A stretch of DNA of 64,000 nucleotides from positions 16,358 through 80,357 of the forward strand of contig CP055308.1 of assembly GCA_013374855.1 (NCBI GenBank), in the 5' to 3' direction. Positions 29,628-50,737 of this stretch are shown piece by piece. The notes beneath the pieces were generated by a model. The model saw only the letters and a list, made by a program, of their open reading frames with translations. It searched no databases and was not told where the DNA came from. Position numbers and translations under genes: made by a program. Position 1 is the stretch's first letter, and every line of letters starts with the position of its first letter. This DNA comes from Candidatus Woesebacteria bacterium. GTDB taxonomy: Bacteria > Patescibacteriota > Microgenomatia > UBA8517.

Positions 29628-29669
29628 AAAAGTGAGAGGAGTGAAGCTGTATCACCCGGAGGGTGTGGT
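29628..29669. repeat. about 42-nt motif AAAAGTGAGAGGAGTGAAGCTGTATCACCCGGAGGGTGTGG (copy 2)
   Basis: Overlaps the last codons and stop (…HSTTPSG*) of the 304-aa ATP-grasp gene. Confidence 0.7.
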
Positions 29670-30566: not shown

Positions 30567-30567
30567 T

Positions 30568-32777: not shown

Positions 32778-32806
32778 ATTTTTTGAATATAAAAGTTATT
32801 CTTTTT

Positions 32807-33712
32807 TTAAGAAGAAATCAATTTTCTAAAACGCCAATACTCCATAAAACGCAAACCCACATAACGCCCCACTAAAATATCGATTATCATTACCAAAAAC
32901 AGAAAAACCTCAGGATTTAAAAGCGCATATCGACGGAGTGGCTCAAGCGTTAAAAGAAAATAAGAAAAAAGAGCAAGAACTAAAGTTTCAGCTGTTAAGT
33001 TTAATGCTGTTCTTACGCTTTTCCCAAGCTGAACTCGAGAAAAATCCTCTGCCAATAAAACAAGAATAAGAACAGGAAAAATAGAAACATTAGTTAACCC
33101 AATTTCTTTCAATAAAGGTGCAGAAAACAAAAGACCCAAGACCCCAATTACCACAAACCACAAAAGCATTGCCATTCTTGGAAGATATTGAAGCCTAAGT
33201 TTTAGTTTTCTTGTAATCATTCTAAATAAAGTGGAAAAAAAGATGATAACGGTAAAAATTAAAACTCCAAGCAGAGGCCCAATGGCAATAAAAACAACCG
33301 AGAGAGCAGCCGGCATAAAAATTCCAAAACCGCGTAGGCCGATCAAATGACGGGAGGCGGCAATTAAGGCGGCAACGGCCGTTAAAAGCAAAAGTAAAAC
33401 TATCGTGTTTGCCGGCACTCCTGCGGCAACCGATTTTCTGATTGCATATTTCATAAAATTAAACGGCCAGACAGCGCCTATTCCTTGTTCTGCCAAAAGT
33501 TTTTCTAGAGGACCTATTGCTTCTTCCGTTTTTTGAGTTATGTCAACCTTGGGCAACGGTGTAGTGATTTCCTCAACTTTTGACGATTCCATTTGCTTAT
33601 CTATGGGAGTTGGCGGTGGTGAAGAAACCACAGGAAAAACCGCAAAAACAGATTTTGCACAAAAGAAGACAAAAACAAAAGCTGCCAACAAAGAAAGCTG
33701 CAGAAATTTCAT
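32807..33712 (-). CDS. polytopic membrane protein (signal peptide, about 65-aa extracytoplasmic segment, about 7 TM helices)
   Basis: Hydropathy read from the sequence; first gene of the ATP-grasp operon. Confidence 0.6.
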   Translation of the reverse strand: MKFLQLSLLAAFVFVFFCAKSVFAVFPVVSSPPPTPIDKQMESSKVEEITTPLPKVDITQKTEEAIGPLEKLLAEQGIGAVWPFNFMKYAIRKSVAAGVPANTIVLLLLLTAVAALIAASRHLIGLRGFGIFMPAALSVVFIAIGPLLGVLIFTVIIFFSTLFRMITRKLKLRLQYLPRMAMLLWFVVIGVLGLLFSAPLLKEIGLTNVSIFPVLILVLLAEDFSRVQLGKSVRTALNLTAETLVLALFSYFLLTLEPLRRYALLNPEVFLFLVMIIDILVGRYVGLRFMEYWRFRKLISS

Positions 33713-34404: not shown

Positions 34405-35781
34405 ATGAGAGATACTGACAATAGAATTTCCAGACGGGAGTTTATGAAGCTTTCAGGTGTAGCAATTACTGGGGCAATACCTCATCAAATCATAGAAAGA
34501 GTAAGTCTCCTTTTATCTAAAGAAAGAATAACAACAATAAACACTTTAACAGCTCATCAAGCTGCATTTTATGCTCAAACAATATTTAAAGGCCAACCTT
34601 ACGAACTTGGAGTAAGAGATTGCGCGATGTTTGCCGCCCAATTTGCCTCATACTATGGCATACCCCTTGTAAGAACCAACACCACCAATATCAATGAATA
34701 TTCCCCTCAGCCTCCAAAAGATCCAATGCCAGACGCATCAACAATATTCCAAGTAAAATGGTTTGAAACAGCAGCAACTCTCCTACCGAAAGAACTTATT
34801 CAAACCTACTCCTACAATCAAATCGCGGATATAAACTCTTGGCATAAGATAAATCCCGGCTCATTACTCTACCTGAGAAACAAAGGGCGCACTCATCATG
34901 GATATAATACATATTTCCATACTCTTGCTTACATAGGAATTAACAAACAACAACCGATTTTTGCTGAATATAATGTAGGTATGAAAAAAGGCCCAGAAGT
35001 TGGAATACCGCTAGACAAGATTTTATCCAGATATCAAAACTTACCTAACGATCAGATAACAGGCACTATAATAAATGTCCCCGGATTATCAACTGAAATA
35101 TGGCAAAGACAAACAGGAAAAGTTTCCCCTAATTACGATTCTAGAATTTTAAGAGAGGCAGGTCAACAAATTCTAACTATAAACTTAATTGATGGCACCG
35201 CAACCTACTGGCAGGTAGATTCAAAAGGAAAATTCATTCAAAAACCGTTTGAAAACAAAGAAATGGAGGTTAGAACAGAAAGAATCGGCACCCAAATTCC
35301 ATCAGATCCGTATACCATACTCACCTTCTACAAGTTTACCCAGCCCCACTATTTTGTTTCCCTCGGTATGCCCACAACAGAAGAGGGATGTTTCTACGGA
35401 GCACCTCTTTGCGTTCCACGTTTTCTCACTATTCCTCCAATGGTAGCTGGTGTTAACCTCACAAGTGAGGGGGCTTCTCTGGAAATACTATACTCACCTT
35501 CAACAGGGAAAATAGAAAAAGGAACCCCACAACACGTTTATATTCTTCAGCCCAGTAATGCCTTTTTGCCAAAAAACACTGCTATCACATTCCCACCCCA
35601 AACCTTTGAAGCTATCCGGAAAACGATAGATAAAGGAATAAAAACAATTTTGATTTTATCATATCCACAATTTCCACAAGACATTCTCTTACAGAAAGGC
35701 AATTCTCTCCTTGGAAAAGATCCTTTACTTGATTTTCTTAACACCCACAAGATGCCTCCACAAGTTCTCACAGGCCGATAA
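34405..35781 (+). CDS. Tat-signal secreted protein with N-terminal papain/C39-like domain
   Basis: 458 aa; SRREFMKLSGVAITGA twin-arginine signal; GVRDCAMFAAQFASYYGI (C39-like Cys helix) and HHGYNTYFHTLAYIG (His). Confidence 0.55.
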   Translation: MRDTDNRISRREFMKLSGVAITGAIPHQIIERVSLLLSKERITTINTLTAHQAAFYAQTIFKGQPYELGVRDCAMFAAQFASYYGIPLVRTNTTNINEYSPQPPKDPMPDASTIFQVKWFETAATLLPKELIQTYSYNQIADINSWHKINPGSLLYLRNKGRTHHGYNTYFHTLAYIGINKQQPIFAEYNVGMKKGPEVGIPLDKILSRYQNLPNDQITGTIINVPGLSTEIWQRQTGKVSPNYDSRILREAGQQILTINLIDGTATYWQVDSKGKFIQKPFENKEMEVRTERIGTQIPSDPYTILTFYKFTQPHYFVSLGMPTTEEGCFYGAPLCVPRFLTIPPMVAGVNLTSEGASLEILYSPSTGKIEKGTPQHVYILQPSNAFLPKNTAITFPPQTFEAIRKTIDKGIKTILILSYPQFPQDILLQKGNSLLGKDPLLDFLNTHKMPPQVLTGR

Positions 35782-35875: not shown

Positions 35876-36730
35876 TTGTTTATTTCGGAGAAGAAGAGTA
35901 GAACAAAAAACTCTCCAAGGTCTCACAATAACCTGGCTAAACCAAAAAGTATTATATATTCAAGAACAAACCTAAAAATCAAAAGGAGAATTGTTCCAAG
36001 GATGAGCAAATACAAACTCAAGCCTCAACTTGATGAGTTTTGTTTGCAAAATAATCTCCAAATGGTATCAACTGCAACCATTGGGAGAATTATTAAAAGA
36101 AATAATCTGTTTTATTACAGATCAGGCAAAGTATATCACAATCCTGCATCTAAATGGGCTCAGAATGAGACCAAAAGAAAGAAAAAAGCAAGAGTCAGGT
36201 ATGCGCCAAAACCTTCAAATTTAGGTTACATTCAAATGGATACGGTTGAAAAAATAATTGATGGGCAAAGATGGTATATGTACCAGGCAATTGATGTTCA
36301 AGGGAAATCTGCCCTTTCCTTGACATACAGAAGACTTAATTCAAAAAACACAGTAGATTTCTTTAAAAAGTTCCAGTTTATCTTGCCTTACAAGGTAACC
36401 ACAGTCCAAACAGACAATGGACTTGAGTTTTTGGGGCATTTTGATGCCTACCTCCAAGCTCAGTGTGTCCCACATGTCTTTACTTATCCCAGATGCCCGA
36501 AGATTAATGGGGTCGTTGAGCGATTCAACAAAACACTAAATGAAGATTTTATTGAACCAAACCTCAATCTCATATATGACCAAAAACAATACAACAAAAA
36601 CTTAGCTGAATATATGATATATTACAACTGCATTAGACCACACGAATCATTAAATAATATGACACCGATTAACTACCTTATTCAGAAAGGAGGAATGTCG
36701 AAAATGTTGCGATCCTGTATATTGAATTGA
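35876..36730 (+). CDS. DDE-type integrase/transposase (rve catalytic core)
   Basis: 284 aa; …YIQMDTVEKI…WYMYQAIDVQGKSAL…TTVQTDNGLEF…NGVVERFNKTLNEDF… is the D,D(35)E rve pattern. The N-terminal HTH looks truncated; the true start may be MSKYKL at about 36002. No flanking terminal inverted repeats identified. Confidence 0.75.
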   Translation: MFISEKKSRTKNSPRSHNNLAKPKSIIYSRTNLKIKRRIVPRMSKYKLKPQLDEFCLQNNLQMVSTATIGRIIKRNNLFYYRSGKVYHNPASKWAQNETKRKKKARVRYAPKPSNLGYIQMDTVEKIIDGQRWYMYQAIDVQGKSALSLTYRRLNSKNTVDFFKKFQFILPYKVTTVQTDNGLEFLGHFDAYLQAQCVPHVFTYPRCPKINGVVERFNKTLNEDFIEPNLNLIYDQKQYNKNLAEYMIYYNCIRPHESLNNMTPINYLIQKGGMSKMLRSCILN

Positions 36731-36785: not shown

Positions 36786-37493
36786 ATGTCAAAAGAGAGT
36801 TTATCAAGAAGAGAATTTTTAAAGTTGGGTGGGGTGATTCTTGTTTCCCGTCTTGTTCCAGACTGCCTTAGGGAGGTTAAACCATTCCCTTTCATTAACC
36901 AAAAAAACCAGTCTCAATGTGCCATTGCTTCTATGACTATGTTAATTGCCAGTTTCAAACAAAGAGAGAACAAACCTGATGTCAATGTCGAAAATATTTA
37001 CGACCAAGTCCTCCAACAAGCAATCAAGACAACCAAAAGAGATCTAACCAAACCATCCTCAAATGGGGTATATGGAAACGAAATAATTCAAATTCTTAAT
37101 TCTATAGGGCAACAGCAGGGATGGATAGCAAAAGACAACAGGAGAAAAGCTTCTCCTGAAGTAGTTGAGCAACAACTATTAGCATACGGACCTGCCATTG
37201 TAGATATAAATGTAGATTACAAACCAATAAAAAAGGACTATTCTTTGAATCATTGGGTTGTAGTAACCAATCTAGAAAGAAAGGGGGGTACTCGTGTAAT
37301 AATAGCCGACCCTTTCAGAACACAATCAAAGGTTCCGTTTCTTCCATTTTCTCCAACCTTGCCTGAAGGTGTTCAATTCTACGACGGCGACAACAGACTG
37401 ATAATCGCGGAGTGGACAACCTTTACCTCATCAGCTGGAGGCGTTTTTATACAACTGCAAAGAACATACAAACGGACAACTCCTTCCATTTAA
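36786..37493 (+). CDS. Tat-signal C39-like (papain-fold) peptidase-domain protein
   Basis: 235 aa; SRREFLKLGGVILVS signal; Q…C…H…D pattern (QSQCAIASMTMLIASF, HWVVVTNL, IIADP) typical of the C39-like family. Confidence 0.6.
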   Translation: MSKESLSRREFLKLGGVILVSRLVPDCLREVKPFPFINQKNQSQCAIASMTMLIASFKQRENKPDVNVENIYDQVLQQAIKTTKRDLTKPSSNGVYGNEIIQILNSIGQQQGWIAKDNRRKASPEVVEQQLLAYGPAIVDINVDYKPIKKDYSLNHWVVVTNLERKGGTRVIIADPFRTQSKVPFLPFSPTLPEGVQFYDGDNRLIIAEWTTFTSSAGGVFIQLQRTYKRTTPSI

Positions 37494-37520: not shown

Positions 37521-40292
37521 CTAGGGGTTTATTTCCCTCCAATTGAAGCTTCTCTGATAGAAGTAATAAGGCATAGAAAGGATAAGATTCGGTTTGTATT
37601 CAAATAATTCAGCAGGTGTGGATTGAGGATTCTTATCTAGAGTTAGAGATCTTTGAAGCTGTACTGTGTTGGCTACAACAGTCCCATTTACAATAAGCTG
37701 ACTGTCTTGTCTTGACCCTTCTGTCCCTGTAGAAAAAGAACCATCGGCAAGGAATATTCCATCAATTCTTGTTACTGAAGGATCAATTTTAATATCACCC
37801 GTTGCCACTATCATCAGAAAACCATTACCATTAGTAGCTAATGTAATGTCTCCTTCCACAGTTACGTCTCCATTAACAAAAAGTACAAGTTTTTGATTAA
37901 AGCCTGAAGAGGCACTAATCTTAAGATCTCCATTCACTTTAGTCCAATAGTAGTTGTCTTTTAGTATGCTGTTATTCCCTGTTGTAAAATTAGAAAGAGA
38001 TAATGGACTAACAGGACTATTAATAACACCTTGGGAGTTCCCCCACCCATTCCTAACTTCAGAAGGAACTTTGCCTTCAAAGTAGGAATAGTTATACAAG
38101 TTGTAGACAGAGGCAATATTTGTCTTTACTGCCCCCCATCCACTTTCTGAAACAGACCCCTCACCTATCCTAATGTTTCCATTATAGAAGGCAATACCAG
38201 AAGTATTACTACCTTTAGTCAGAAGATAACTACCTTCAGGAATATATGAGGCTATATCATTTAATGCAATAACATCAGCATCTTTAGCCTGCCAGAACTT
38301 ACCAGGCCTTACAATTACAGAAACAGAACAAGGAACATCGGCACTACCACATGCTTTACCAGAGCCATCAGCAGCAGGAGAACTAATAGTCAGAGTTGCA
38401 GTTTTCAAAACATCAACTTCTCCTGCTTCCAAATTAGCTCTTACTTCCCCATTGTCTCCCACACTTGATGAAATAACTCTAATTATGCTATTATCAGACG
38501 ATGTGACAGTGACAGAAGAATTGTTATTGTCTGACAGGGTAGCCAATAAGACATTATCCCTTCGTTCACCAGAAACAAAGGGAACAACACTTTGTAGAGT
38601 GCACTTGCAAGGAACCTCAATCGACCCGGGGCCACATGAGAAAAATCTCGCTAACCCGTTTCCGTGCACATACTCATTAACAGGACCATAAATCCCAGTT
38701 GCAGGATTATAACTTCTCCAAAGTAATCTCTGTCCCTTAGTCACAAAATCCAAAACCGGTTCATCCTCTGCCCTGAAAATTCTGTCAAAATCAATGGAAA
38801 ACTGAACAGGATAAATTCCTCCCTCATAATATCTTGGTCCTGTCCATATCTCATCAACCTTGGCAGAAGTAGAAGTTCCTCTTGGTATTCCTTCTACATC
38901 AATTTCAGCAATTATAACTGTCTTCTCACCTTTATCCCACCTTGGCTCCATCGTAATTGTGAAATTCCTGCAAACAGAGCCGTCCAACATTACCACCAAT
39001 TCTGTTTTTTGCTGCTCTGTAGACTGCCTGCTCAAACTCCCTAACAATTTCCCAACACTCCCCGGATCGTTACAAAAAACTTGAATCTTTTCAGGAGGAA
39101 AATGAAAAAGACCGCCAACTTTACCCGCAAAAAAGTAAAAGCGCAAAGTCTGCAAATAATAATAACCACCCATGTTAATATTAATTTTTGCCACTACATT
39201 TTGAAAAAAAGTCCATGCAGGATCAGAAAAATAACCACTGCCGTGATTGTCATCAGTCATCTCGCCACCACTATCAGTATTATTAAGTGGCTGGTTATCA
39301 ACCCAAGAGTAAGTGTAGTCTAAGTCTTGCTGAGCTTGATTTTTTATGTTTTCTGCAACATACGGCTTAGTAAACTCCCGCCATGTGTAAAGAGAAAACA
39401 ACTCTTCCAAACTTTTACTTGGATTGTAAATAGAAGAATCATAAACATTAGAGCGTATTGGGTCAGAAACACTGCTTCCACTTCCTCTTGCTCCAATCCA
39501 GCCATAAACTGACCCACCACATTTCAAACAAAGTTCCTCTAAATAAGAAGGAAGTATCCCAGCATCTCGCTCTCCTGGGAAGCAGGCAGATTGAACACTG
39601 GTATATACACAAGGGAACTGGCTTTGATTTGGAGTAACATTAGGGTCCCCACCTATAGGCGGAGGAAAAGATGGAAAAAGAGTTGAAACAGGGGAAGACT
39701 GATTAATGCTAATTGCAAAATCCCACCATCCCCGTGGTATGTACATATAGGAATAAGTTCTGTGGTAATCATTACAACACCTACCTGGAAAACCAATAGA
39801 GCCATACAGATACTGATCAGGAAAATCTAAAAATTTGTTAGAAAAACCAATAAGACCTATATTCAAAAGACTTGTCGAAGCCCAAGCGGTAATAGCACCA
39901 ACAGATTGGCCTAATAAGTTTGTTTCAGGAGAAAAAATAGGACGATTGCTACCTACATAAGAAGATGTAATCTTCGTAAAAACACCTCCACCTAATTTTA
40001 AATAATCTGGCACATAACCACTAACCTCACTACTAGTAATCATATCCCTAACCTCTTGGCATGTCTTATTGGGTAAGCCACAAGGAGGAGGGCTTGGCGG
40101 CAATTCCAATGTTCCATAACAAGGAAGTGACGTACCTGTATAGCTAGTACAGCCCTGAAAAACACCTCCATCAGGCAGGCTATACCACCAATAATAAGCC
40201 GCTTTTGCAAATCTCACAAAGAAGAATGCAAAAAAAACAAAGACCAAAAAAGCAACTAGACTATTTCTAAAAAGACCCCTTTTCATAGACAA
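37521..40292 (-). CDS. large Cys-rich secreted protein (923 aa) with Big_2-like Ig domain and a C-terminal domain shared with the 1042-aa paralog
   Basis: N-terminal signal/TM (LVAFLVFVFFAFFFV), many Cys pairs, Big_2-like segment (VTVTSSDNSIIRVISSSVGDNGEVRANLEAG…). The C-terminal about 330 aa are 75-100% identical to those of the 41181-44309 product. Confidence 0.7.
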   Translation of the reverse strand: MSMKRGLFRNSLVAFLVFVFFAFFFVRFAKAAYYWWYSLPDGGVFQGCTSYTGTSLPCYGTLELPPSPPPCGLPNKTCQEVRDMITSSEVSGYVPDYLKLGGGVFTKITSSYVGSNRPIFSPETNLLGQSVGAITAWASTSLLNIGLIGFSNKFLDFPDQYLYGSIGFPGRCCNDYHRTYSYMYIPRGWWDFAISINQSSPVSTLFPSFPPPIGGDPNVTPNQSQFPCVYTSVQSACFPGERDAGILPSYLEELCLKCGGSVYGWIGARGSGSSVSDPIRSNVYDSSIYNPSKSLEELFSLYTWREFTKPYVAENIKNQAQQDLDYTYSWVDNQPLNNTDSGGEMTDDNHGSGYFSDPAWTFFQNVVAKININMGGYYYLQTLRFYFFAGKVGGLFHFPPEKIQVFCNDPGSVGKLLGSLSRQSTEQQKTELVVMLDGSVCRNFTITMEPRWDKGEKTVIIAEIDVEGIPRGTSTSAKVDEIWTGPRYYEGGIYPVQFSIDFDRIFRAEDEPVLDFVTKGQRLLWRSYNPATGIYGPVNEYVHGNGLARFFSCGPGSIEVPCKCTLQSVVPFVSGERRDNVLLATLSDNNNSSVTVTSSDNSIIRVISSSVGDNGEVRANLEAGEVDVLKTATLTISSPAADGSGKACGSADVPCSVSVIVRPGKFWQAKDADVIALNDIASYIPEGSYLLTKGSNTSGIAFYNGNIRIGEGSVSESGWGAVKTNIASVYNLYNYSYFEGKVPSEVRNGWGNSQGVINSPVSPLSLSNFTTGNNSILKDNYYWTKVNGDLKISASSGFNQKLVLFVNGDVTVEGDITLATNGNGFLMIVATGDIKIDPSVTRIDGIFLADGSFSTGTEGSRQDSQLIVNGTVVANTVQLQRSLTLDKNPQSTPAELFEYKPNLILSMPYYFYQRSFNWREINP
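37922..38339. repeat. 417-bp segment 100% identical to 41590-42005 (direct repeat inside the two giant paralogs)
   Basis: Base-by-base comparison of the two stretches showed no mismatch; flanks drop to about 75%. Confidence 0.9.
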
Positions 40293-40298
40293 AATAAA

Positions 40299-40997
40299 CT
40301 AAAACCTAAAATTAGAAAAAAGAACAACTGACGACAAATTATATCCTCCATACCCACTATCACATAAAGCATTGGTTTTATTTTCATCTGATTCAAAGGA
40401 AACAAAAACTAAACTATTAGGTTTAAGTTTGCAAGGGTTATAGTTATCTTCTGAATAAAGAGGCTTATTATCGCTTTCTCTTATATATTTACCCAGATCA
40501 AAACCAAAAAACGGCTCACCGCCATACGAATAAAAACCAGATCTACCAAAAACAAAATCAAACCTAATTTTGCATCTTTCATTAAATTTAACAACAACTG
40601 GGCAATAATTTACAGCAGAAGAAGATAACAAATTCATATAATCAGACATAACTTTCTCATCTACCACAATGGTACCATATCCGCCGTAAATATATTCCTC
40701 TCCAAATTCATCTACCTTTTTATCTAAAAGAAACAGCCCCCTAGGATAGGGAGAGTATAAAACAGAAGCTTCTTCAGGAAGAACAACTTTTAATGAAGGA
40801 AGGAAAATTCTGTTATAGAAAGAAGAAAATGGTCCGGCGGTTAATTTGGAAACAAAAGTTAAACTATTGGCATTTAAATTAAGATTCCGAACACTCCAAG
40901 AAAACATAAAGCATAAAGTATAAAGAATTACGAATAGGAAGACGAAGAGAAAAATAAAATATCTTACTTTTAGCTTAAAAGGCAGTTTTAATTTCAT
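40299..40997 (-). CDS. hypothetical membrane-anchored protein (232 aa) preceding the 923-aa giant gene
   Basis: N-terminal TM (FIFLFVFLFVILYTLCFMF); weakly similar to the 222-aa protein at 44370-45038. Confidence 0.55.
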   Translation of the reverse strand: MKLKLPFKLKVRYFIFLFVFLFVILYTLCFMFSWSVRNLNLNANSLTFVSKLTAGPFSSFYNRIFLPSLKVVLPEEASVLYSPYPRGLFLLDKKVDEFGEEYIYGGYGTIVVDEKVMSDYMNLLSSSAVNYCPVVVKFNERCKIRFDFVFGRSGFYSYGGEPFFGFDLGKYIRESDNKPLYSEDNYNPCKLKPNSLVFVSFESDENKTNALCDSGYGGYNLSSVVLFSNFRF

Positions 40998-41180
40998 TAT
41001 TCAATTTGTCTAATTAAAAGATATAGCAATAAAACATCGTTGTCAACACAAATTGTAAAGCAGGAAAAAAGATAGTAAATACAATTAAAATTATAAAATT
41101 AAAGCAAGTACACTATTTACAAGAATTTATAATCCAATTACAAAGATCTCCTCCCCCTTTGTGAAAGACTATTGTATTTA

Positions 41181-44100
41181 TTACGGATTTACCTCCCTCC
41201 AGTTTAAGTTTCTTTGATGGAAGTAGTAAGGAATAGAAAAGAGAAGGTTGGGTTTGTACTCAAATAGTTCAGCAGGTGTGGTTTGAGCTTGGCTTACAGG
41301 AAGGGATCTCCTAAGGATAACATTACTGGCAATAACTGTACCATTTACCTTAAGTTGGCTGTCTTGCCTTGATCCTCTTGTTCCTGTAGAAAAAGAACTA
41401 TCAGAAACAAATATTCCATCAATTCTTGTTACTGCAGGGTCAATTTCAATATCACCTGTTGCTATAACCATAAGGAAACCATTATTACCAACATCAGCAT
41501 TTCTTAATGTAATATCCCCTTTTATAGTCACTTTTCCATTAACAAAAAGCATAAGTTTTTTATCAAAGTTTGATGAAGAAGAAATTTGAAGATCTCCATT
41601 CACTTTAGTCCAATAGTAGTTGTCTTTTAGTATGCTGTTATTCCCTGTTGTAAAATTAGAAAGAGATAATGGACTAACAGGACTATTAATAACACCTTGG
41701 GAGTTCCCCCACCCATTCCTAACTTCAGAAGGAACTTTGCCTTCAAAGTAGGAATAGTTATACAAGTTGTAGACAGAGGCAATATTTGTCTTTACTGCCC
41801 CCCATCCACTTTCTGAAACAGACCCCTCACCTATCCTAATGTTTCCATTATAGAAGGCAATACCAGAAGTATTACTACCTTTAGTCAGAAGATAACTACC
41901 TTCAGGAATATATGAGGCTATATCATTTAATGCAATAACATCAGCATCTTTAGCCTGCCAGAACTTACCAGGCCTTACAATTACAGAAACAGAACAAGGA
42001 ACATCTGTGGTGCCACAGGCTAATTCCGACTCGTCAGAAGAGTTTGCGCTAATATTTAGTGTAACAGTCTTTACTTCATCCACTTGCCCTGCAGTTGCGT
42101 TAACCTTCACATTACCTGCATCATCAACACTAGTACTGTTTATTGACAAAACAGATGTATCAGAAGAAGAAACAGATACAGAAGAACGATCATAATTCCC
42201 AAGAGTCACCAAAGTCACGTCCTTCGTTTCTCCAGATACAAAAGGAGGAATAGATGGCTTGATAGTGCATTGGCAAGGCGTACTAGCCGGCTGACAGGGA
42301 CTAAGTCTTGCGCCTAAAGGATTTTGATTACCATCAGCAATGTTAGGATCCTCTTCATAAGGGTAAGCTTGACCACAAGAACTAGGGTCGCTACTAGTAC
42401 ACCTTCTCCACAAAAACTGAGGACCATAAATGCGACTACCATCTAAATTTGCAATTGACATTTGAGTCAAGTACCAGCCAGATTTGAAATACTTAGGACC
42501 AAAAAACACTGTATCAACAGGATTACTCCTATCAACGGCATAACTATCAAAACTAAAGCTATAAGCTCTACTCCAATCTTGCCTTCTAACATTTTCTTCA
42601 AGAACATTGTCCACCCTAACCGCATCCTCTGAAACAATAGGATTATTCTGACCCCAAACCTTAAGTTCTTGAAGATAGGTTGGTGTGTCCACTGTGTCCC
42701 CCGGCTCCGCAATCCCAATATAATACTTAACTCTCAAACTGCTACAATTTCTCCTCAAAGGTACTGATAATCTGTCTTCTGTATAAGATGTCGTATTGTT
42801 CGATGCTTTGAAGAGGACACGAGGATAAACAACTCCAGACCTTTCACCATCACAAAATACCCAAATCTCCTTGGGAACATTTATTACCTGACCGTACTGA
42901 TTCCTGTAAAGAAAATCAAAAGTAAGATAATCCACAAACTTTTCGCTACCAAGATCAATTTCCAAATCAGCATCCGCAACAGCCGTACCTAAATTACTAT
43001 CCTCATTATTATCAGGAAAATGCCTAACAAAGTAAAAATCACCATTTGGATAGGTAACACCAAATGGTGTGCCACTTCTTGTAACTTTATCGTCTCTTAA
43101 CTTAACATTACTTTCACTTTCTATATTATCATCTGTTTTATAACAATCAGCACAATCAGTTGTTGGGCTCACTAACCAACTATAAGTATAATCCAGCTTT
43201 ACAGAAGGAGGTATCTCGGGAGCTTCTATACTTTCATCAGGAGGAATATAAGGAGATGGTAAAAACGGATCAGCTTGTGTTCCTGAACCACCACCATTTG
43301 ATATCCAAGTGTAAATTTTGCCTCCACAATTTGGCTTACAACCAAAACTAGGTGGAGGTGTTAAAGTCTTGTACTCAGTACCATAACATATATATTCTTT
43401 TTCGTCACCACTACCTACTCTCCTAAAATCACAATCACTATAACTATTATAAGAACATGTCAAGTCTACACTATCACCAGAACACTTATATGAACCACGA
43501 CAATGACCACTACTCACCCGCGCAAAAGAATCATTTCGGTTGTTGCCATTACAACTTGAATAAGGCACACCAGGACTACTAAAAGGACAATAATAACAAG
43601 CGCCAGGTTCCAAACCTGTAAGATTAGACCTGTAACCAAAAGAATACCAACCATCACTAGGTATATAAATGTAGCCATACTCCCTTAATTGTTGCGTACA
43701 TTTGTTATTAAAAACAGAAAACATTTTTGAAGTTCCAGATAAGAATGCATCGACAAAGCCAACAGTATTTAATGAAATAGGTTCTTCCACCGCTCGACTT
43801 TTTTCAACTGAATCATCATCTAGCCTCGTTTCAGGTAAATAATAATCAACTGTAGAAGCAGTGCGTGCAATTGACTTATAGAAAACCTTGCTACTTTGAA
43901 AGGCCTTTTTTAAATCATCCTCGCTGCTACTTCCCTGAAGGCTATCTAATAAACTTTGTAAAGAGCTTTGGCAAGTTGTATTGTAATAGCTACACTGTGG
44001 CGGACTAAAATTACCAGGTTTATCCCCTATTTTTTTTACTACCTTATTTCTACGTGGTGCTTCACCACAATCCCCCCTACAATAACCAGCAAGTATTGGT

Positions 44101-44309
44101 CTGCTACCACAGTTAGTACACCAATTAAAATCATATGTACAACTAGATCTGTAACAATCTTGATCAAGAACTATCTCCCATTGCGCACTCGCATAAAAAT
44201 TTTTAAGAAAAAAAGACAAAGAATAAAAAATAAACAGAAAATAGACTAAAAATACCACTCCCTTAGCTAATTTATCCAATAAATAAGCAAAACTTATCTT
44301 GTTCTTCAT
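41181..44309 (-). CDS. large Cys-rich secreted protein (1042 aa), paralog of the 923-aa protein
   Basis: N-terminal TM/signal, Cys-rich N-terminal half, Big_2-like segment (SVSVSSSDTSVLSINSTSVDDAGNVKVNATAGQVDEVKT), shared C-terminal domain ending …LFEYKPNLLFSIPYYFHQRNLNWREVNP. Confidence 0.7.
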   Translation of the reverse strand: MKNKISFAYLLDKLAKGVVFLVYFLFIFYSLSFFLKNFYASAQWEIVLDQDCYRSSCTYDFNWCTNCGSRPILAGYCRGDCGEAPRRNKVVKKIGDKPGNFSPPQCSYYNTTCQSSLQSLLDSLQGSSSEDDLKKAFQSSKVFYKSIARTASTVDYYLPETRLDDDSVEKSRAVEEPISLNTVGFVDAFLSGTSKMFSVFNNKCTQQLREYGYIYIPSDGWYSFGYRSNLTGLEPGACYYCPFSSPGVPYSSCNGNNRNDSFARVSSGHCRGSYKCSGDSVDLTCSYNSYSDCDFRRVGSGDEKEYICYGTEYKTLTPPPSFGCKPNCGGKIYTWISNGGGSGTQADPFLPSPYIPPDESIEAPEIPPSVKLDYTYSWLVSPTTDCADCYKTDDNIESESNVKLRDDKVTRSGTPFGVTYPNGDFYFVRHFPDNNEDSNLGTAVADADLEIDLGSEKFVDYLTFDFLYRNQYGQVINVPKEIWVFCDGERSGVVYPRVLFKASNNTTSYTEDRLSVPLRRNCSSLRVKYYIGIAEPGDTVDTPTYLQELKVWGQNNPIVSEDAVRVDNVLEENVRRQDWSRAYSFSFDSYAVDRSNPVDTVFFGPKYFKSGWYLTQMSIANLDGSRIYGPQFLWRRCTSSDPSSCGQAYPYEEDPNIADGNQNPLGARLSPCQPASTPCQCTIKPSIPPFVSGETKDVTLVTLGNYDRSSVSVSSSDTSVLSINSTSVDDAGNVKVNATAGQVDEVKTVTLNISANSSDESELACGTTDVPCSVSVIVRPGKFWQAKDADVIALNDIASYIPEGSYLLTKGSNTSGIAFYNGNIRIGEGSVSESGWGAVKTNIASVYNLYNYSYFEGKVPSEVRNGWGNSQGVINSPVSPLSLSNFTTGNNSILKDNYYWTKVNGDLQISSSSNFDKKLMLFVNGKVTIKGDITLRNADVGNNGFLMVIATGDIEIDPAVTRIDGIFVSDSSFSTGTRGSRQDSQLKVNGTVIASNVILRRSLPVSQAQTTPAELFEYKPNLLFSIPYYFHQRNLNWREVNP
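41590..42005. repeat. 417-bp segment 100% identical to 37922-38339
   Basis: See the paired feature at 37922-38339. Confidence 0.9.
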
Positions 44310-44369
44310 TTTCTAAATTCAAATAAACCCACGCTTATGAAAGTCTATTTTTCTCATAAATTACACATA

Positions 44370-45038
44370 CTAATGGTAAAGAATAGAATCAATCAAGTCA
44401 ATCCTTAAAACTCTACCACTATCATCTAAGAAATACCTAATAAAATCACCTTCTGAAATATCAGAAAAATTAAATTCAAATGAAACAAAAAGAGGCTTTC
44501 CTTTAGCAAAATGCCTTCCCACCTCTAAAAACTGGTCTTCTTTAAAAATCCTACTAGGCAACAAAAAAATATTCCCTTTTGGGTAATAGAAGCCAAAAGT
44601 TATATTATCCAAATTTGTATTTTCAAGAACAAAATTATTTTCCCTATTCAATAACCTCCCTCTTACCCCCAAGGTCATTTTAATAATTGGGTCATAAGCA
44701 CCACTTCTTATATCAGTTACGCCATCAGGAATAGTTTCTTCAAACTTCAAGTAATTTATATAACCATAACCCACACTAACTGTAGATGACAAAGAATTAT
44801 CATAATAACTATACTCATAAGCAGAAAGAGGAAAGCGATAGGTTGGAACAAATACAAGATGTCTAGCCAATTCAAGATAAAAATTGTCTAACCCCAACCT
44901 CCACTTCCCAGGGATAGGCAAAAAGGCTGTTAATTCGAAAATAAACAAAAATAAAGCAAAAAATACAACTAAAAGTAAAAGATTCCTAAAAAAATAATTA
45001 AAACTTAACTTTTGCTTCCAATCTACATTCACTAACAT
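44370..45038 (-). CDS. hypothetical membrane-anchored protein (222 aa) preceding the 1042-aa giant gene
   Basis: N-terminal TM (LLLLVVFFALFLFIFELTAFL); no recognisable domain. Confidence 0.55.
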   Translation of the reverse strand: MLVNVDWKQKLSFNYFFRNLLLLVVFFALFLFIFELTAFLPIPGKWRLGLDNFYLELARHLVFVPTYRFPLSAYEYSYYDNSLSSTVSVGYGYINYLKFEETIPDGVTDIRSGAYDPIIKMTLGVRGRLLNRENNFVLENTNLDNITFGFYYPKGNIFLLPSRIFKEDQFLEVGRHFAKGKPLFVSFEFNFSDISEGDFIRYFLDDSGRVLRIDLIDSILYH

Positions 45039-45044
45039 AATGCA

Positions 45045-45908
45045 CTAATAGCTAGCCGATAAAACAATATCATATTGAAAATCCGGATTATTAATTACTT
45101 CATTGATATCAAAACTACTCAAAAACTTAACAAATACTAGTTTGTCCCTATAATAATTTTCCAAAGAAGATACAGACACGGGCACACTTAGATTACAATT
45201 AGGATTCATAAAGCTATCAAGACCATCTAAGTTTACACAGGAATAATCATAAATAATAATATTCCTAAGTGATCTACAATAATTATAACCTACCTTTCCA
45301 TTCAAGATGTATGAATATGAAATTCCTGGAATTTCATTATATAACTCCGGTAATCCTAAATCACCACTATTATTAAGACTAGGCAAGATGGAAGAAGAAC
45401 TAATGTCATACCTAAAAGAATAAGTCTTACCATCTTTAGAAAGTAATTCCATAACAACATACTGCTTGTCAAAACCATCTTCCTTCACATTGAATTCTCT
45501 TCCACCCTTATACTTACCAATAAAGCCATAAGTAAAATTTCCTGCATAGTTTTTACCCCTTATTAAATAAGGGTGAGATGGATAAGGGCAAAAGAAATCT
45601 CTACTTAAATCGAATTTGTTCGATGATACAAAACCAGTTAAAAAAGTATAGGCAAAACTCATATATTTGTTTTGAATTAAATAACTAAAAAAGCCTATCT
45701 TCTTAATATCTTTTAGCATATAGGTCCTTGATATTAATAACCAGCTAATAAAACACAAAATAACAGAAAATAAAGCATAAATAAAAAAAATTAGAATAGC
45801 CCTAAACAAAAAGAAGCTTACCCAATAAATAAACTTATTATTATCGAAAGACAAGGATTTAAATTCAAAAGAAAAAGCATTCCCACTTTTCGCTTCGCTT
45901 TTAGGCAT
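45045..45908 (-). CDS. hypothetical membrane protein (287 aa), first gene of the giant-protein operon
   Basis: Two N-terminal TM helices; rest unassigned. Confidence 0.5.
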   Translation of the reverse strand: MPKSEAKSGNAFSFEFKSLSFDNNKFIYWVSFFLFRAILIFFIYALFSVILCFISWLLISRTYMLKDIKKIGFFSYLIQNKYMSFAYTFLTGFVSSNKFDLSRDFFCPYPSHPYLIRGKNYAGNFTYGFIGKYKGGREFNVKEDGFDKQYVVMELLSKDGKTYSFRYDISSSSILPSLNNSGDLGLPELYNEIPGISYSYILNGKVGYNYCRSLRNIIIYDYSCVNLDGLDSFMNPNCNLSVPVSVSSLENYYRDKLVFVKFLSSFDINEVINNPDFQYDIVLSASY

Positions 45909-46068
45909 TAATTCAATTTAGACAAACTAAAAACATTTGTCAAGAACCAAGAAATATTCTTTATTAGACTTCCAATCTCCTAAAAAATTCACCTGGTCAA
46001 AAAAATTTATTTCCCAACACAAAAATCAAATTTTTAGATAGAAAGAGTATTTATCCTCCCACGCAATA

Positions 46069-47358
46069 TTATGCCACTCTCTCTTTCAAAGCCTTGTAGT
46101 ACTTATGAAGGTAATCATATGCTAATTCCCAATGATGCTCTCCCATTCCTGCTAAAGCCTTGTTTCTTTCCATCTCAGCCATCACACGAAGATGAGCCGC
46201 TTTTTGAAACTGGAAAGAAGAGATACGATACTCTTCTGCCAACAAATTTTTAACCGTATCTTCCACCTCAACAGCCTTCACCGGGTCGGGGGTGCCATTT
46301 ATCTTTTGCCATTTATTAACCTGAAGCGAAGCGACAATATTGGGCTCAAAAGCAAGCTTTAAGTTAGAAGCCAAAAGGCAATAAAATTTTTCAAGCGAAA
46401 CTCTCGCCTCTTCCCACTTATGTTTATCGCCACTTACTAAGGCTTCTATAAAATGCCTCCCTGCCTGAACAGCAAGACTTTTTGATATACCATACTGCTC
46501 TTTAAGATAACTGATAACAAAATCGCGAAACCTTACTCCTTGTGGCACTTTGGAAAGCCTCCACCAAGAAAGCTCAAGTTTGGCAACCAACTCTGGTTTA
46601 AAGGTAAAATGCCTTTCAGCGTCATTTCCACCAAACCTCCTTCTGCGGCGAGAATAGTCAAGAATTGCTTCTTTTAGCTTTTCGGGGGTAAAGTCAGGAA
46701 GATGATCTTCTTCAAAATAATATTCCGCATAAACCATCTGCCAAGGGAGATATCCTGAAGTTCTCTGTTCTCCCGATGTTCTGATAAAAAGGTCCGGGTA
46801 GGGATAAGGCTGTCCCTTTGTATCCAAGTAAGATGCAAACAAGTTTTCATCTATTTTTTCAGGAGAAACTCCGTCTTTTACTATTGACTTCACTGCCCTT
46901 AATATCTCATCTCTGCCACCATAATCAAGAGCCAAATTAAGAATATTTTTATCAAAATGAGCAGTTTCTTTTTCTACTCTAGCCAACAATTCAGCAACAT
47001 CTTTTGGAAATCTGTCCTTGCGACCAAGATGAACAAGGCGAACTTTATCCCTTTTAGCTTCTTTCAAAAACTCAACTAATCCCTTTCGCAAAAGATCCAA
47101 AATAGCATCTATTTCCTCCTTCGGACGAGACCAATTTTCAGTTGAAAAAGCCCAAATGGTAAATGTGTGAACTCCCATTTGTCGTGCGGCTTTGGCAACT
47201 TTCTTAATTGCCTCATACCCTGCCCTGTGGCCTTCCCAAGGGAGAAGTCCGCGGCTTCGCGCCCAGCGGCGGTTGCCGTCTAATATCATTGCAATATGAT
47301 CCGGAACTTTTGTCCCTTTGGGAAGTTCTAAATTTTTATCGCTTTTCATTAAATTCAT
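46069..47358 (-). CDS. uppS: undecaprenyl-diphosphate synthase (cis-prenyltransferase) with about 190-aa C-terminal extension of unknown function, paralog 1
   Basis: UppS core HIAMILDGNRRWA…FTIWAFSTENWSRP…RTSGEQRTSGYLPWQ; the residues after …RRRRRFGG have no counterpart in canonical UppS. Confidence 0.8.
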   Translation of the reverse strand: MNLMKSDKNLELPKGTKVPDHIAMILDGNRRWARSRGLLPWEGHRAGYEAIKKVAKAARQMGVHTFTIWAFSTENWSRPKEEIDAILDLLRKGLVEFLKEAKRDKVRLVHLGRKDRFPKDVAELLARVEKETAHFDKNILNLALDYGGRDEILRAVKSIVKDGVSPEKIDENLFASYLDTKGQPYPYPDLFIRTSGEQRTSGYLPWQMVYAEYYFEEDHLPDFTPEKLKEAILDYSRRRRRFGGNDAERHFTFKPELVAKLELSWWRLSKVPQGVRFRDFVISYLKEQYGISKSLAVQAGRHFIEALVSGDKHKWEEARVSLEKFYCLLASNLKLAFEPNIVASLQVNKWQKINGTPDPVKAVEVEDTVKNLLAEEYRISSFQFQKAAHLRVMAEMERNKALAGMGEHHWELAYDYLHKYYKALKERVA

Positions 47359-48889: not shown

Positions 48890-49440
48890 TAGGATAAAAA
48901 GAAGGATTGTCAATACCGGAAAATGAGGCTGAGCTAGGTTGGGACAGGTTGGGAGGTTGGAACAGCGTCGGACACTGCCATATAAGGGCAGGAGAGTAGA
49001 AGAGTGGAAGTTATTAGTTATTTCTGCTTGCCCTTCCGTAGCCTTGGCGAAGGAGGGTGATTTGTAATTTGGAATTTGTGTATCGTTTGTAATTTGTAAT
49101 TTGATTGGTTCTTTGAATTTGTGATTTGGAATTTTTCTTCTTTGTTCTATGTTGTATAGAAGAGCGGGAGAGTAGAAGTTAATTCAAATGGTCAAGGGTC
49201 AATGGTCAATGGTTAATGGTCAATAGTTAATTGTTAATTGTTATTTGTTATTTTTGCTTTGTAATTTGTAATTTGATTCTATAAAGGTCTCGCCTTTATT
49301 AAAGGCCAGACCTTATTAGGAGATCTGTTCAAGGTTGCGTGTTCTATCCGTTAATTGTTAAATGTTAATAGTTAATTGTTCGCGGGGAGCGTTGTTGTTA
49401 GTTGGCAGTTGTTAGTTGGCAGTTTGCAGTAAGCGCGCCT
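48890..49440. repeat. mosaic short-tandem-repeat element, copy B (inverted relative to A)
   Basis: The reverse complement of 49130-49440 aligns with 33790-34190 (…aacgctccccgcgaacaattaac…ggtctggcctttaataaaggc…aaattacaaattacaa…cattgaccattaacc…cttctactctcccgctcttctatacaacatagaacaaagaa…). Confidence 0.8.
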
Positions 49441-50737
49441 ACGCTATTCTTTCTTTGAGGGCTCTGTAGTACTTTTCTAAATAGTCAAAAGCAAGCTGCC
49501 AATGACGCTCCCCCATCCCCGCCAAGGCTTTATTGCGCTCCATCTCCGCCAATACCCGAAGATGAGCTGCTTTTTGAAACTGAAAAGAAGAAATGCGATA
49601 TTCTTCAGCCAAAAGATTTTTAACCGTCTCTTCCGCCTCAACCGCATTTACAGGATCGGGGGCACCGTTTATCTTCCGCCATTTGTTAACCTGAAGCGAG
49701 GCAACAATATCAGGCTCAAAAGCAAGTTTCAAATTAGAAGCCAAAAGCCGATAAAACTTTTTAAGCGAAGTCTTTGCTTCTTCCCACTCGTGCCTGTCCC
49801 CGCTTATTAAGGCCTCTACAAAATGCTTTCCAACCTGCTTTGCAAGCTGTTTTGATATGCCATACTGCTCTTTAAGATAGCTGATCACAAAATCGCGAAA
49901 TCTTACTCCCTGCGGCACTTTGGAAAGCCTCCACCAAGAAAGCTCAAGTCTGGCAACAACCTCCGGCTTGAAAGTAAAATGACGCTCAACATCATTTCCA
50001 CCAAATCTGCGACGGCGGCGAGAGTAATCAAGAATTGCTTCTTTTAATTTTTCAGGAGTAAAATCTGGAAGATGCTCTTCTTCAAAATAGTACTCTGCAT
50101 AAGCGATTTGCCAAGGAAGATATCCAGAGGTTCGTTGTTCTCCTGATGTTCTGATAAAAAGATCCGGATATGGATAAGGCTGGCCTTTAGTATCCAGATA
50201 AGAAGCAAACAGATTTTCATCTATTTTTTCAGGAGGAATTTTATCGGCAACTATTGCTTTTACCGCTCTTAATATTTCATCTCTGCCACCATAATCAAGA
50301 GCCAAATTAAGAATATTCTTATTAAAGTGAGCAGTCTCTTTTTCCACTCTAGTCAGAAGTTCAGAAACATCTTTTGGAAATCTATCTTTGCGTCCAAGAT
50401 GAACAAGGCGTACTTTATCTTCTTTAGCTTCTTTCAAAAACTCAACTAATCCCTTTCGCAAAAGATCCAAGATTGCATCTATCTCCTCCTTAGGACGGGA
50501 CCAGTTTTCAGTTGAAAAAGCCCAAATGGTAAATGTGTGAACTCCCATTTTACGCGCAGCTTTGGCTACTTTCTTAATAGCCTCATATCCTGCCCTATGT
50601 CCTTCCCAAGGAGGAAGACCACGACTTCTCGCCCAACGACGGTTGCCATCTAAAATCATTGCTATGTGATCTGGAATTTTTGTTCCCTTTGGAAGCTTTA
50701 GACCTTCTTTAATTTTCATCTTAAAAATACTGCTCAA
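49439..50737 (-). CDS. uppS: undecaprenyl-diphosphate synthase with C-terminal extension, paralog 2 (about 85% nt identity to 46069-47358)
   Basis: 432 aa, same architecture as paralog 1; co-directional with the polyprenyl synthase upstream. Confidence 0.8.
   Translation of the reverse strand: MSSIFKMKIKEGLKLPKGTKIPDHIAMILDGNRRWARSRGLPPWEGHRAGYEAIKKVAKAARKMGVHTFTIWAFSTENWSRPKEEIDAILDLLRKGLVEFLKEAKEDKVRLVHLGRKDRFPKDVSELLTRVEKETAHFNKNILNLALDYGGRDEILRAVKAIVADKIPPEKIDENLFASYLDTKGQPYPYPDLFIRTSGEQRTSGYLPWQIAYAEYYFEEEHLPDFTPEKLKEAILDYSRRRRRFGGNDVERHFTFKPEVVARLELSWWRLSKVPQGVRFRDFVISYLKEQYGISKQLAKQVGKHFVEALISGDRHEWEEAKTSLKKFYRLLASNLKLAFEPDIVASLQVNKWRKINGAPDPVNAVEAEETVKNLLAEEYRISSFQFQKAAHLRVLAEMERNKALAGMGERHWQLAFDYLEKYYRALKERIA

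Follow-up and report, generated by a model that had tools for sequence, protein, structure and literature searches.

The locus described here encodes two paralogous giant proteins, g923 and g1042, that carry Sec signals and are best read as modular surface adhesins, in which a conserved C-terminal β-solenoid would dock to the type IV pilus apparatus and/or to a membrane partner. We put the probability of this reading at about one half. The giants and their small partners fall into a large, unnamed and unannotated protein family of CPR/Microgenomates. Since genes of this family lie within the type IV pilus cluster of many relatives, their products probably act as exchangeable heads with which a cell attaches to others.

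Little is known of how CPR/Patescibacteria locate their hosts and stay attached to them beyond a few cultivated Saccharibacteria, and we know of no cultured member of the Microgenomates. Secreted proteins that combine glycan-binding-type modules, the fold of a pilus-tip receptor and a fixed slot in a pilus cluster are concrete candidates for host recognition, and may be linked to an episymbiont lifestyle. As a marker, the family could allow host range to be predicted from metagenomes, and its solenoid domain merits a Pfam model. It also offers a testable scheme in which variable heads sit on a conserved docking plug and gene conversion maintains their compatibility.

Organisation of the locus

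In the window, that is the whole 64-kb stretch of DNA analysed, five co-directional ORFs of 287, 222, 1042, 232 and 923 aa follow one another on the minus strand, separated in the same order by gaps of 6, 60, 183 and 6 nt (Table 1). An ORF check returned coordinates and sizes exactly as they had been given in an earlier note on this DNA, and the source contig of 802,554 bp agrees with the small genome assumed there. Each of the five proteins has a single N-terminal hydrophobic segment, which in s287 spans aa 25-66.

Table 1. Features of the locus, in coordinates of the window.
Feature	Position	Strand	Description
s287	45045..45908	-	ORF; 'u2-type' partner, predicted bitopic (N-in, C-out) membrane protein
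s222	44370..45038	-	ORF with N-terminal TM segment; 'u1-type' partner, predicted bitopic membrane protein, no Cys, immediately upstream of g1042
g1042	41181..44309	-	Sec-secreted giant, 30 Cys; variable N-terminal region, then C-terminal solenoid
C-terminal solenoid of g1042	41181..42011	-	aa ~767-1042; HMM match 4.5e-92; 85% identical to g923 domain
417-nt block, second copy	41589..42005		in g1042
Promoter-like site	45915..45943	-	TTGACA-17-TAAATT, upstream of s287; 10/12 matches
Promoter-like site	41018..41046	-	TTGACA-17-TATCTT, in the 183-nt gap upstream of s232; 10/12 matches
s232	40299..40997	-	'u2-type' predicted bitopic membrane protein, paralogue of s287
g923	37521..40292	-	Sec-secreted giant, 17 Cys; TTG start, alternative ATG two codons downstream
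Jelly roll of g923	38883..39305	-	discoidin/F5-8C/CBM32-like; about aa 330-470, boundaries approximate
Ig-like β-sandwich of g923	38358..38585	-	about aa 570-645, immediately before solenoid; pLDDT 80-92, all-β
C-terminal domain of g923	37521..38345	-	aa ~650-923; predicted IBP-1/ComZ-like right-handed β-solenoid, invariant tail
417-nt block	37923..38339		first half of g923 solenoid domain; 100% identical to 41589-42005

The locus had previously been interpreted as a tandem duplication of a module made of one small TM protein and one giant. A duplication did take place, but the small proteins in front of the two giants are not each other's duplicates, and we dropped that part of the interpretation. 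BLASTP detects no mutual similarity among s287, s222 and s232, while profile and transitive searches (via L029_5625 and an iterative HMM) pair s232 with s287 and not with s222, which is of a different type. The layout is therefore u2 (s287), u1 (s222), g1042, u2 (s232), g923, and not two identical two-gene modules. No match to s287 was found in Pfam, NCBIfam or PHROG. s222 resembles L018_202 and L029_6311, which occupy the equivalent position, only weakly (E about 1e-3 against a database of 8 sequences), and an iterative HMM seeded with s222 recruited no sequences. Direct BLAST, iterative HMM and hhalign failed to group the small TM proteins as a single family, and gave no link between the partners in the window and the 'U-family' described below or other small-TM clusters. 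The small partners evolve fast, and their divergence is too great for a single family to be demonstrated.

Architecture of the giants

Overall identity between the two giants is 41% and rises to about 85% in their C-terminal domain, and both end in ...NWRE(I/V)NP. AXA-type cleavage sites (FAKA↓A and ASA↓Q) accompany the N-terminal hydrophobic segment of each. Cysteine makes up 1.8% and 2.9% of their residues, compared with 0.78% in the other ORFs of the window, and almost all of it is located outside the last 270 aa. The N-terminal signal or TM segments, the Cys-rich character and the conserved C-terminal domain with its aromatic tail, all pointed out in the earlier note, are borne out by these figures.

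The N-terminal structure model is of moderate confidence (pLDDT 63). It has no pilin fold; instead it contains a galactose-binding-like jelly roll, the fold of discoidin, F5/8 type C and CBM32 domains, and an Ig fold. The latter had been described as Big_2-like. A confident β-sandwich is indeed predicted at this place (pLDDT 80-92), but the assignment to Big_2 (PF02368) does not hold, as the match of 11.7 bits (E 0.27) lies below the 22.8-bit Pfam threshold.

Features of sortase or SLH anchoring were not found: the giants have no SLH or Gram_pos_anchor match in Pfam, their sole hydrophobic segment is N-terminal, and the giant C-terminus (...PYYFYQRSFNWREINP) does not combine LPXTG with a TM segment and a basic tail. 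Likewise, we found neither the C-terminal β-barrel translocator nor the N-terminal TPS domain that would mark an autotransporter or two-partner secretion system of a diderm host. The C-terminal domain is neither an autotransporter nor an S-layer anchor, and this objection to the earlier interpretation does not apply.

The C-terminal domain has a ComZ/IBP-1 solenoid fold

In its predicted structure, the C-terminal domain of about 270 aa adopts the ComZ/IBP-1 solenoid fold, with a right-handed β-solenoid of triangular section and a helix packed alongside, as is characteristic of IBP-1/DUF3494; Foldseek TM-scores are low (0.3-0.44). Searches of PDB sequences and PDB profiles detected no similarity in sequence to ComZ, IBPs, PilY1 or tapirins and, like those of NCBIfam and PHROGs, came back empty. 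The Pfam model PF11999 (DUF3494) matched neither the giants nor any of 33 family members at E<1. The sole recurrent sequence-level match is to Pfam DUF7305 (PF23981), found in 14 of the 33 members (E<1) over profile positions ~67-175 of 185, in no case reaching the gathering score of 27 bits (best 20.8 bits, E 3.9e-4). DUF7305 has no described function, and we found no mention of it in the literature searched.

ComZ, the competence pilus tip protein of Thermus thermophilus (PDB 6qvi), has the solenoid fold in common with the domain described here. However, ComZ carries its solenoid as an insertion within a GspK-like pilin domain that has an N-terminal pilin helix, whereas that of the giants is a free C-terminal domain in proteins with cleavable Sec AXA signals, without sequence similarity to ComZ and with no pilin domain found. 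ComZ also binds DNA, while the giants carry CBM32-like and Ig-like modules instead. The DUF3494/IBP-1 ice-binding proteins, among them the ice adhesin SfIBP_1 of Shewanella (6bg8), are alike in fold at 12-18% identity, but the domain of the present family exceeds theirs in length and continues into an additional, invariant C-terminal tail with residues P262, P269, W279, E281 and P284. Since the metagenomes in which the organisms occur were taken from groundwater, sediment and reactors, we do not expect ice binding.

A functional analogy can be drawn with the PilY1/PilC tip adhesins. These, too, are not pilins; they have a Sec signal, an N-terminal binding region that varies and a conserved C-terminal domain proposed to dock on minor pilins, and they are encoded inside a pilus cluster with extra paralogues elsewhere. 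The analogy does not extend to sequence or fold: the C-terminal domain of PilY1 is a β-propeller and not a solenoid, and no Neisseria_PilC match was obtained in Pfam. The tapirins of Caldicellulosiruptor turned up in both fold searches; in that organism they adjoin the pilus locus (bioRxiv 10.1101/359786).

A large family with a fixed place in pilus loci

An exhaustive representative search with g923 matched 1535 representative clusters, in each case through aa ~650-923 only. The matched region always forms the extreme C-terminus of the family proteins, which are 217-1308 aa long. A Sec-like h-region is present in 52 of 53 complete members, and none of 53 family ORFs contains a prepilin motif. 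With homologues this abundant, the concern that the genes might be absent from all relatives falls away. Two peptide patterns, both derived from an 8-sequence alignment, served to collect the related loci, and this choice may skew the range of subfamilies covered; an alignment of 33 sequences proved too diverse for patterns.

In 100 related loci, the usual upstream neighbour of the family gene encodes a fast-evolving small membrane protein or a partner of ~470 aa. A small single-TM protein is encoded immediately upstream, on the same strand, of 39 out of 65 family genes; the background frequency is 250 of 1347 ORFs. The ~470-aa 'U-family' partner precedes most of the remaining family genes and is present in 49 loci. 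A lipobox-like motif (11 of 38, compared with 17 of 307 controls) supports in part that U-family proteins may be lipoproteins.

Of the 34 loci that span 15 kb or more, 16 have the family gene within a type IV pilus superlocus, always in the same position. Here, the order is PilO<PilN<PilM<(PilX-like)<[U>][sTM>]FAM>...pilins<PilD<PilC<PilT/B, where pilus genes of the reference are labelled by Pfam hits. CP011214.1 at 573-594 kb is one example of an embedded locus. Together with the ComZ/IBP-1 fold, this supersedes, at the level of the family, the earlier statement that no domain ties the system to a pilus. A precedent for such a link comes from Saccharibacteria, in which type IV pili and the atypical minor pilin PilX2 have been implicated in host attachment (PMC12206443), and the tapirins of Caldicellulosiruptor, mentioned above, provide another.

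Against a pilus reading, 18 of the 34 long loci are not embedded in this way, and the 64-kb window contains no pilus genes. The '...NWREVNP' subclade, to which the window copies belong, lies outside pilus clusters in every case with known flanks (L022, L029); it is an out-of-locus subclade with conserved synteny. The pilus link of both giants therefore rests on 30-37% identity of their C-terminal domain to embedded members. An alternative that is possible, if somewhat unlikely, is that the giants are pilus-independent envelope adhesins. Solenoid and tail would then be held by the co-encoded bitopic proteins or by the cell wall, the giants would form part of a surface coat or attachment organelle, and the position within the pilus locus in relatives would reflect co-regulation only. 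Yet co-regulation alone hardly explains a fixed slot between pilMNO/pilX-like and pilin genes in members that are 30-37% identical, and, given the rapid evolution of the partners, it is not obvious that they share a conserved interface with the invariant tail.

A model for docking and adhesion

In the docking-adhesin model that we prefer, the locus would produce two paralogous Sec-secreted modular adhesins together with fast-evolving bitopic membrane partners. The Cys-rich region, the CBM32/discoidin-like jelly roll and the Ig-like spacer may form a variable, disulfide-rich ligand-binding part, which is mounted on the conserved ~270-aa solenoid with its invariant tail. The solenoid would act as the docking module that attaches the giant to the pilus, at its tip or minor-pilin complex, and/or to the co-encoded membrane partners, while the N-terminal part would bind the target surface, probably host-cell glycans. 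The domain folds, the secretion signals, the size of the family, its conserved gene order, its embedded position in relatives and the duplication are shown here, and we infer physical docking, adhesion and the nature of the ligand. Docking plus binding is consistent with a C-terminus that is conserved and an N-terminus that varies, and the block of 417 identical nucleotides lies within the putative docking domain. The type IV pilus superlocus of Microgenomates may be the founding position of the family, and the window copies would be paralogues outside that locus, supplying alternative heads for binding. Recent gene conversion would keep the docking domains identical as the heads diverge.

A more specific version, which we consider unlikely, is an interchangeable pilus 'head' system. 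Here, a universal solenoid plug, akin in fold to that of ComZ, would be delivered in trans by Sec and loaded on the pilus tip with the help of putative non-canonical, pilin-like or priming membrane partners, resembling a 'split ComZ'. Cassettes duplicated outside the pilus locus would diversify host range, and gene conversion would keep the plug compatible. If true, the giants would be the proteins by which a major uncultivated CPR lineage recognises its hosts.

It is rather improbable that the giants are secreted enzymes or toxins, with a solenoid that is catalytic on a host envelope polymer, as in lyases, hydrolases or tailspikes, and with CBM32-like and Ig-like modules that target this polymer. 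Polysaccharide lyases and tailspikes typically contain a β-solenoid (PMC6561018). Charged residues (D34, R242 and E256) are invariant or near-invariant across the family, two tryptophans (W80 and W279) are invariant, and CBM32 modules usually occur with glycoside hydrolases.

Origin of the locus and of the identical block

A relative (L018-L020, L022) carries a single unit of 222, 202 and 998 aa between the same flanks, in the order UppS, C39-like peptidase and 7TM-transglutaminase/ATP-grasp genes. The synteny with L018 shows that the locus genes are native to the genome, and the single unit of the relative that the window carries a lineage-specific extra copy. The flanks of the 417-nt block are about 75% identical between the giants, and the perfect identity of the block itself may stem from either gene conversion or assembly collapse. 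A diversity-generating retroelement was rejected as its source, as the copies are identical and not adenine-mutated and as an rve transposase is the sole mobile-element-type gene that Pfam detects in 35 window ORFs, roughly half of the ORFs that reach 100 aa; the rest of the window may still encode a reverse transcriptase.

That the locus is an assembly artefact or foreign DNA, be it a mis-assembled or contaminating contig or a prophage tail-fibre region, is very improbable: such a block could be the product of a collapsed or chimeric repeat assembly, and a transposase lies 800 nt away, but the flanking order is kept in the independent relative, which was assembled from three samples, the GC content agrees with that of the window, g1042 and s232 are on record from the 802-kb NCBI contig, s232 is also found in an independent Logan assembly, and a prophage or tail-fibre origin was rejected on 0 PHROG matches and 0 relatives in 2.9 million viral contigs.

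Gene calls and transcription

Promoter-like sites precede s287 and s232, and on this weak evidence two transcription units would be as likely as one operon; the total of 34 such sites is not above the 27.7±4.8 expected from shuffles. g1042 is identical to P0001 of the representative library. At NCBI, s232 is entered as a 202-aa version from a later start. s232 and s287 have the leader AAATTGAAT(T)A-ATG in common.

Architecture and duplication of the locus

Open reading frames were found at exactly the positions and with the sizes that the earlier note had claimed for five minus-strand genes, with gaps of 6, 60, 183 and 6 nt between successive genes.

Genes of the locus, in order of transcription (numbers in the names are protein lengths in amino acids)
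Gene	Product	Coordinates	Strand	Evidence
s287	small membrane protein	45908-45045	minus	ORF
s222	small membrane protein	45038-44370	minus	ORF
g1042	giant	44309-41181	minus	ORF
s232	small membrane protein	40997-40299	minus	ORF
g923	giant	40292-37521	minus	ORF, TTG start

Each of the five proteins has one hydrophobic segment, located at the N-terminus. In the giants, this is accompanied by signal-peptidase-I-type sites (FAKA↓AYY and FYASA↓QWE), in agreement with the signal/TM segments proposed for them. The basic N-termini of the three small proteins fit a bitopic, N-in/C-out topology. As also claimed, the giants are Cys-dense outside their C-terminal domain: g923 contains 17 Cys (1.8%) and g1042 contains 30 (2.9%), versus 0.78% in the other 54 ORFs of the window, and the last 270 aa hold one Cys in g923 and none in g1042. 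The expected conservation of this domain is borne out by 85% identity between the giants, compared with 41% overall. The giants are built from a signal peptide, a Cys-rich region, a jelly roll, one or more β-sandwiches and a C-terminal solenoid. An Ig-like sandwich lies directly before the solenoid; the Pfam Big_2 match there is below threshold (E 0.27).

The genes are co-directional. The best minus-strand promoter-like matches (10/12) lie in the intergenic regions upstream of both s287 and s232. As the total of such matches in the scan shows no excess over shuffled expectation, a single operon and two units are both possible.

BLASTP among s232, s222 and s287 revealed no significant similarity. 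L029_5625, from a related locus, is matched by s232 (E 7e-6) and s287 (E 8e-5), with E 3-4e-6 in a small database. An iterative HMM seeded with either protein pulls in the other, and also gathers the position-equivalent proteins of L018, L023 and L024. The leader AAATTGAAT(T)A-ATG is common to both genes. s222 shows only weak similarity to the proteins encoded directly before the giant in L018 and L029 (E ~1e-3; 8-sequence database). The pairing of s232 with s287, with s222 as a separate type, gives the layout [u2 s287][u1 s222][g1042][u2 s232][g923], where u1 and u2 denote the partner types.

A syntenic relative, known from independent assemblies of three samples (L018-L020, plus L022), carries only a [222][202][998 aa] unit. 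In window and relative alike, the flanks comprise a polyprenyl synthase and a fused UppS, then convergent genes for a C39-like peptidase and a 507-aa protein, and further 7TM-transglutaminase/ATP-grasp genes. This conserved order shows that the five genes are native to the genome and speaks against the contaminating contig that the earlier note had considered. With a single unit in the relative, the window carries a lineage-specific additional [u2 + giant] copy. The proposed tandem duplication is thus retained, but s232 pairs with s287 rather than s222. Two family genes are in tandem or close together in L011:155-4216 and L051 as well, so local cassette duplication is recurrent and not specific to the window.

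The giants share a further feature, which was absent from the earlier note. Over 139 codons (417 nt; 37923-38339 and 41589-42005), every nucleotide is identical, whereas the flanking codons show ~20-45 nt differences per 30 codons. The block lies in the first half of the C-terminal domain. Gene conversion here would let the heads diverge while both paralogues stay able to use one docking partner; alternatively, the identity could stem from assembly collapse.

A family defined by its C-terminal domain

Pfam returned only a sub-threshold DUF7305 match for the C-terminal domain, and NCBIfam, PHROGs and PDB sequence and profile searches gave no match. Searched exhaustively with HMMER, 1.84 billion representatives yielded 1535 homologues at E<=1e-3 (723 at E<=1e-10), at odds with the possibility, raised earlier, that the genes are absent from relatives. 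All 1535 matches cover aa ~650-923 of g923, always at their own extreme C-terminus. Members are 217-1308 aa long and begin with a Sec-type signal peptide followed by a Cys-rich, highly variable region; an h-region is present in 52/53 complete family ORFs and a prepilin motif in 0/53. Member records carry no Pfam annotation and no name but 'hypothetical', and literature searches turned up no account of the family or of DUF7305, nor any link between DUF3494 and pili.

The last 284 aa, modelled with AlphaFold2 from a 33-sequence alignment, are almost all β (pLDDT 84.7, pTM 0.81), and the predicted fold is IBP-1/ComZ-like. The structure prediction proposed in the earlier note yields a confident β fold; at the sequence level, the domain belongs to no curated family. 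A known autotransporter or S-layer anchor, which the earlier note had named as refuting its reading, is not borne out: the giants lack the defining features of autotransporter/TPS and of sortase- or SLH-anchored proteins. They also differ from ComZ-type pilins and PilY1, whose pilin domain and propeller, respectively, were not found in them.

Association with type IV pilus loci

Pattern scans yielded 15 genome loci and 80 metagenome loci. The former come from Microgenomates, Woesebacteria and 'Patescibacteria group', plus some MAGs that probably bear wrong labels. Public titles of L004, L005, L008, L011, L012, L016 and L002 include 'uncultured Gammaproteobacteria' and 'Brocadiaceae'; these MAGs hold the solenoid family together with typical CPR pilus loci, and are probably mislabelled Patescibacteria bins.

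ORF calling gave 104 family ORFs, which reduce to 86 at 90% identity. Among the 65 family genes with enough upstream sequence, 39 are directly preceded by a same-strand 110-330-aa protein with one N-terminal TM (background 250/1347 ORFs). Nearly all others have a ~470-aa protein <80 nt upstream. These proteins form one family ('U-family', 49 loci), without a Pfam match and with a lipobox-like motif in ~30% of members; the window has none. The U-family gene lies directly or second upstream of the solenoid gene (e.g. L004:7239-8753, L095:7447-8388), also inside type IV pilus loci. The L005 U-family protein is 60% identical, in its C-terminal half, to the neighbouring small TM protein.

In 16 of 34 distinct loci of >=15 kb, the cassette occupies one fixed place within a type IV pilus superlocus, in the order PilO<PilN<PilM<(PilX-like)<[U>][sTM>]FAM>(PilX-like<)...pilin cluster<PilD<PilC<PilT/B, where FAM is the family gene. 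PilM, PilC, PilB/T, PilD and pilins were labelled from Pfam hits in L001 and BLAST to those references, PilN and PilO from position and topology only, and PilX-like from a sub-threshold PilX_N match (E 0.013). By rough estimate, a random gene in a ~0.8-1 Mb genome would lie no more than 10 kb from the pilus cluster in only a few per cent of cases. The ~290-aa PilX_N-like protein (GQA[LV]LIVLLSLSVVL...) directly adjoins the cassette in Microgenomates superloci (L006, CP011214.1, 573023-593757; L001; L011; 13 others), where small single-TM proteins without a G/E5 prepilin motif are scattered among the pilin genes.

Pilus-embedded members are 30-37% identical to g923 in the solenoid. The window giants fall in a '...NWREVNP' subclade (L021, L017, L024, L022, L023, L027...), in which no member with known flanks is pilus-embedded, and the 64-kb window contains neither a pilin-motif ORF nor a Pil homologue. 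For the window genes, the putative pilus link therefore amounts to family-level guilt by association. The earlier statement that no domain ties the system to a pilus no longer applies to the family, given the relatives' superloci and the ComZ-type fold.

A putative docking module

The most economical reading combines a docking module, a head and membrane partners. Docking would fall to the conserved solenoid with its invariant tail (W279, E281, P284, P262, P269), ligand binding to the variable, disulfide-rich N-terminal part, and anchoring or loading of the giant to the co-encoded membrane proteins. As docking site we favour the pilus tip or a minor-pilin complex, given where the family sits in the pilus cluster and that its fold is of the ComZ type. 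ComZ, whose own solenoid is closest to an IBP, has been argued to cap the pilus (PMC6561018). Giants docked on a pilus tip would be functional analogues of PilY1/PilC. Precedents are PilX2 of Saccharibacteria (PMC12206443) and the tapirins, encoded beside the Caldicellulosiruptor pilus locus (10.1101/359786). Non-pilin adhesins encoded in a pilus locus are a known kind. Previous mention of large Cys-rich extracellular proteins in CPR is only generic (PMC4736985). For an uncultivated lineage, the family offers concrete host-recognition candidates that can be tested.

Three alternatives can be ranked behind the docking scheme. The foremost, though still rather unlikely, is that the membrane partners anchor the giants at the surface independently of any pilus. 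A catalytic solenoid appears improbable. An artefact or foreign DNA is hardly credible, given the synteny with relative loci, the matching composition, the same proteins in independent records and the lack of viral relatives in our searches.

Neighbouring features

Adjoining the giants are two fused undecaprenyl-diphosphate synthase copies (46069-47358 and 49439-50737, both minus; 429 and 432 aa; 88.7% mutual identity), each a Prenyltransf domain with a C-terminal extension of ~190 aa, and with a 370-aa Tat-signal protein between them. In L018 there is a single UppS, along with a 63-aa remnant that matches the C-terminus of the Tat-signal protein. The UppS pair marks a second segmental duplication of recent date.

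An rve-family transposase (IS element; 35876-36730, plus) separates two genes that are adjacent in L018, encoding a C39_2-like peptidase (36786-37493) and a 458-aa protein (34405-35781). Each has a Tat-like SRREFLKLxG signal, and within the subclade the two are conserved as convergent neighbours of the giant. The conserved cluster at 29652-33712 (minus), also present in L018/L019, includes a 7TM-transglutaminase-associated membrane protein, an ATPgrasp_ST protein with a C-terminal protease-like region and two RimK-like ATP-grasp ligases, and resembles a system for peptide ligation or modification. Most window genes are on the minus strand and GC skew is negative in nearly all 2-kb bins over the 64 kb; strand bias is strong, and the window seems to lie inside a single replichore.
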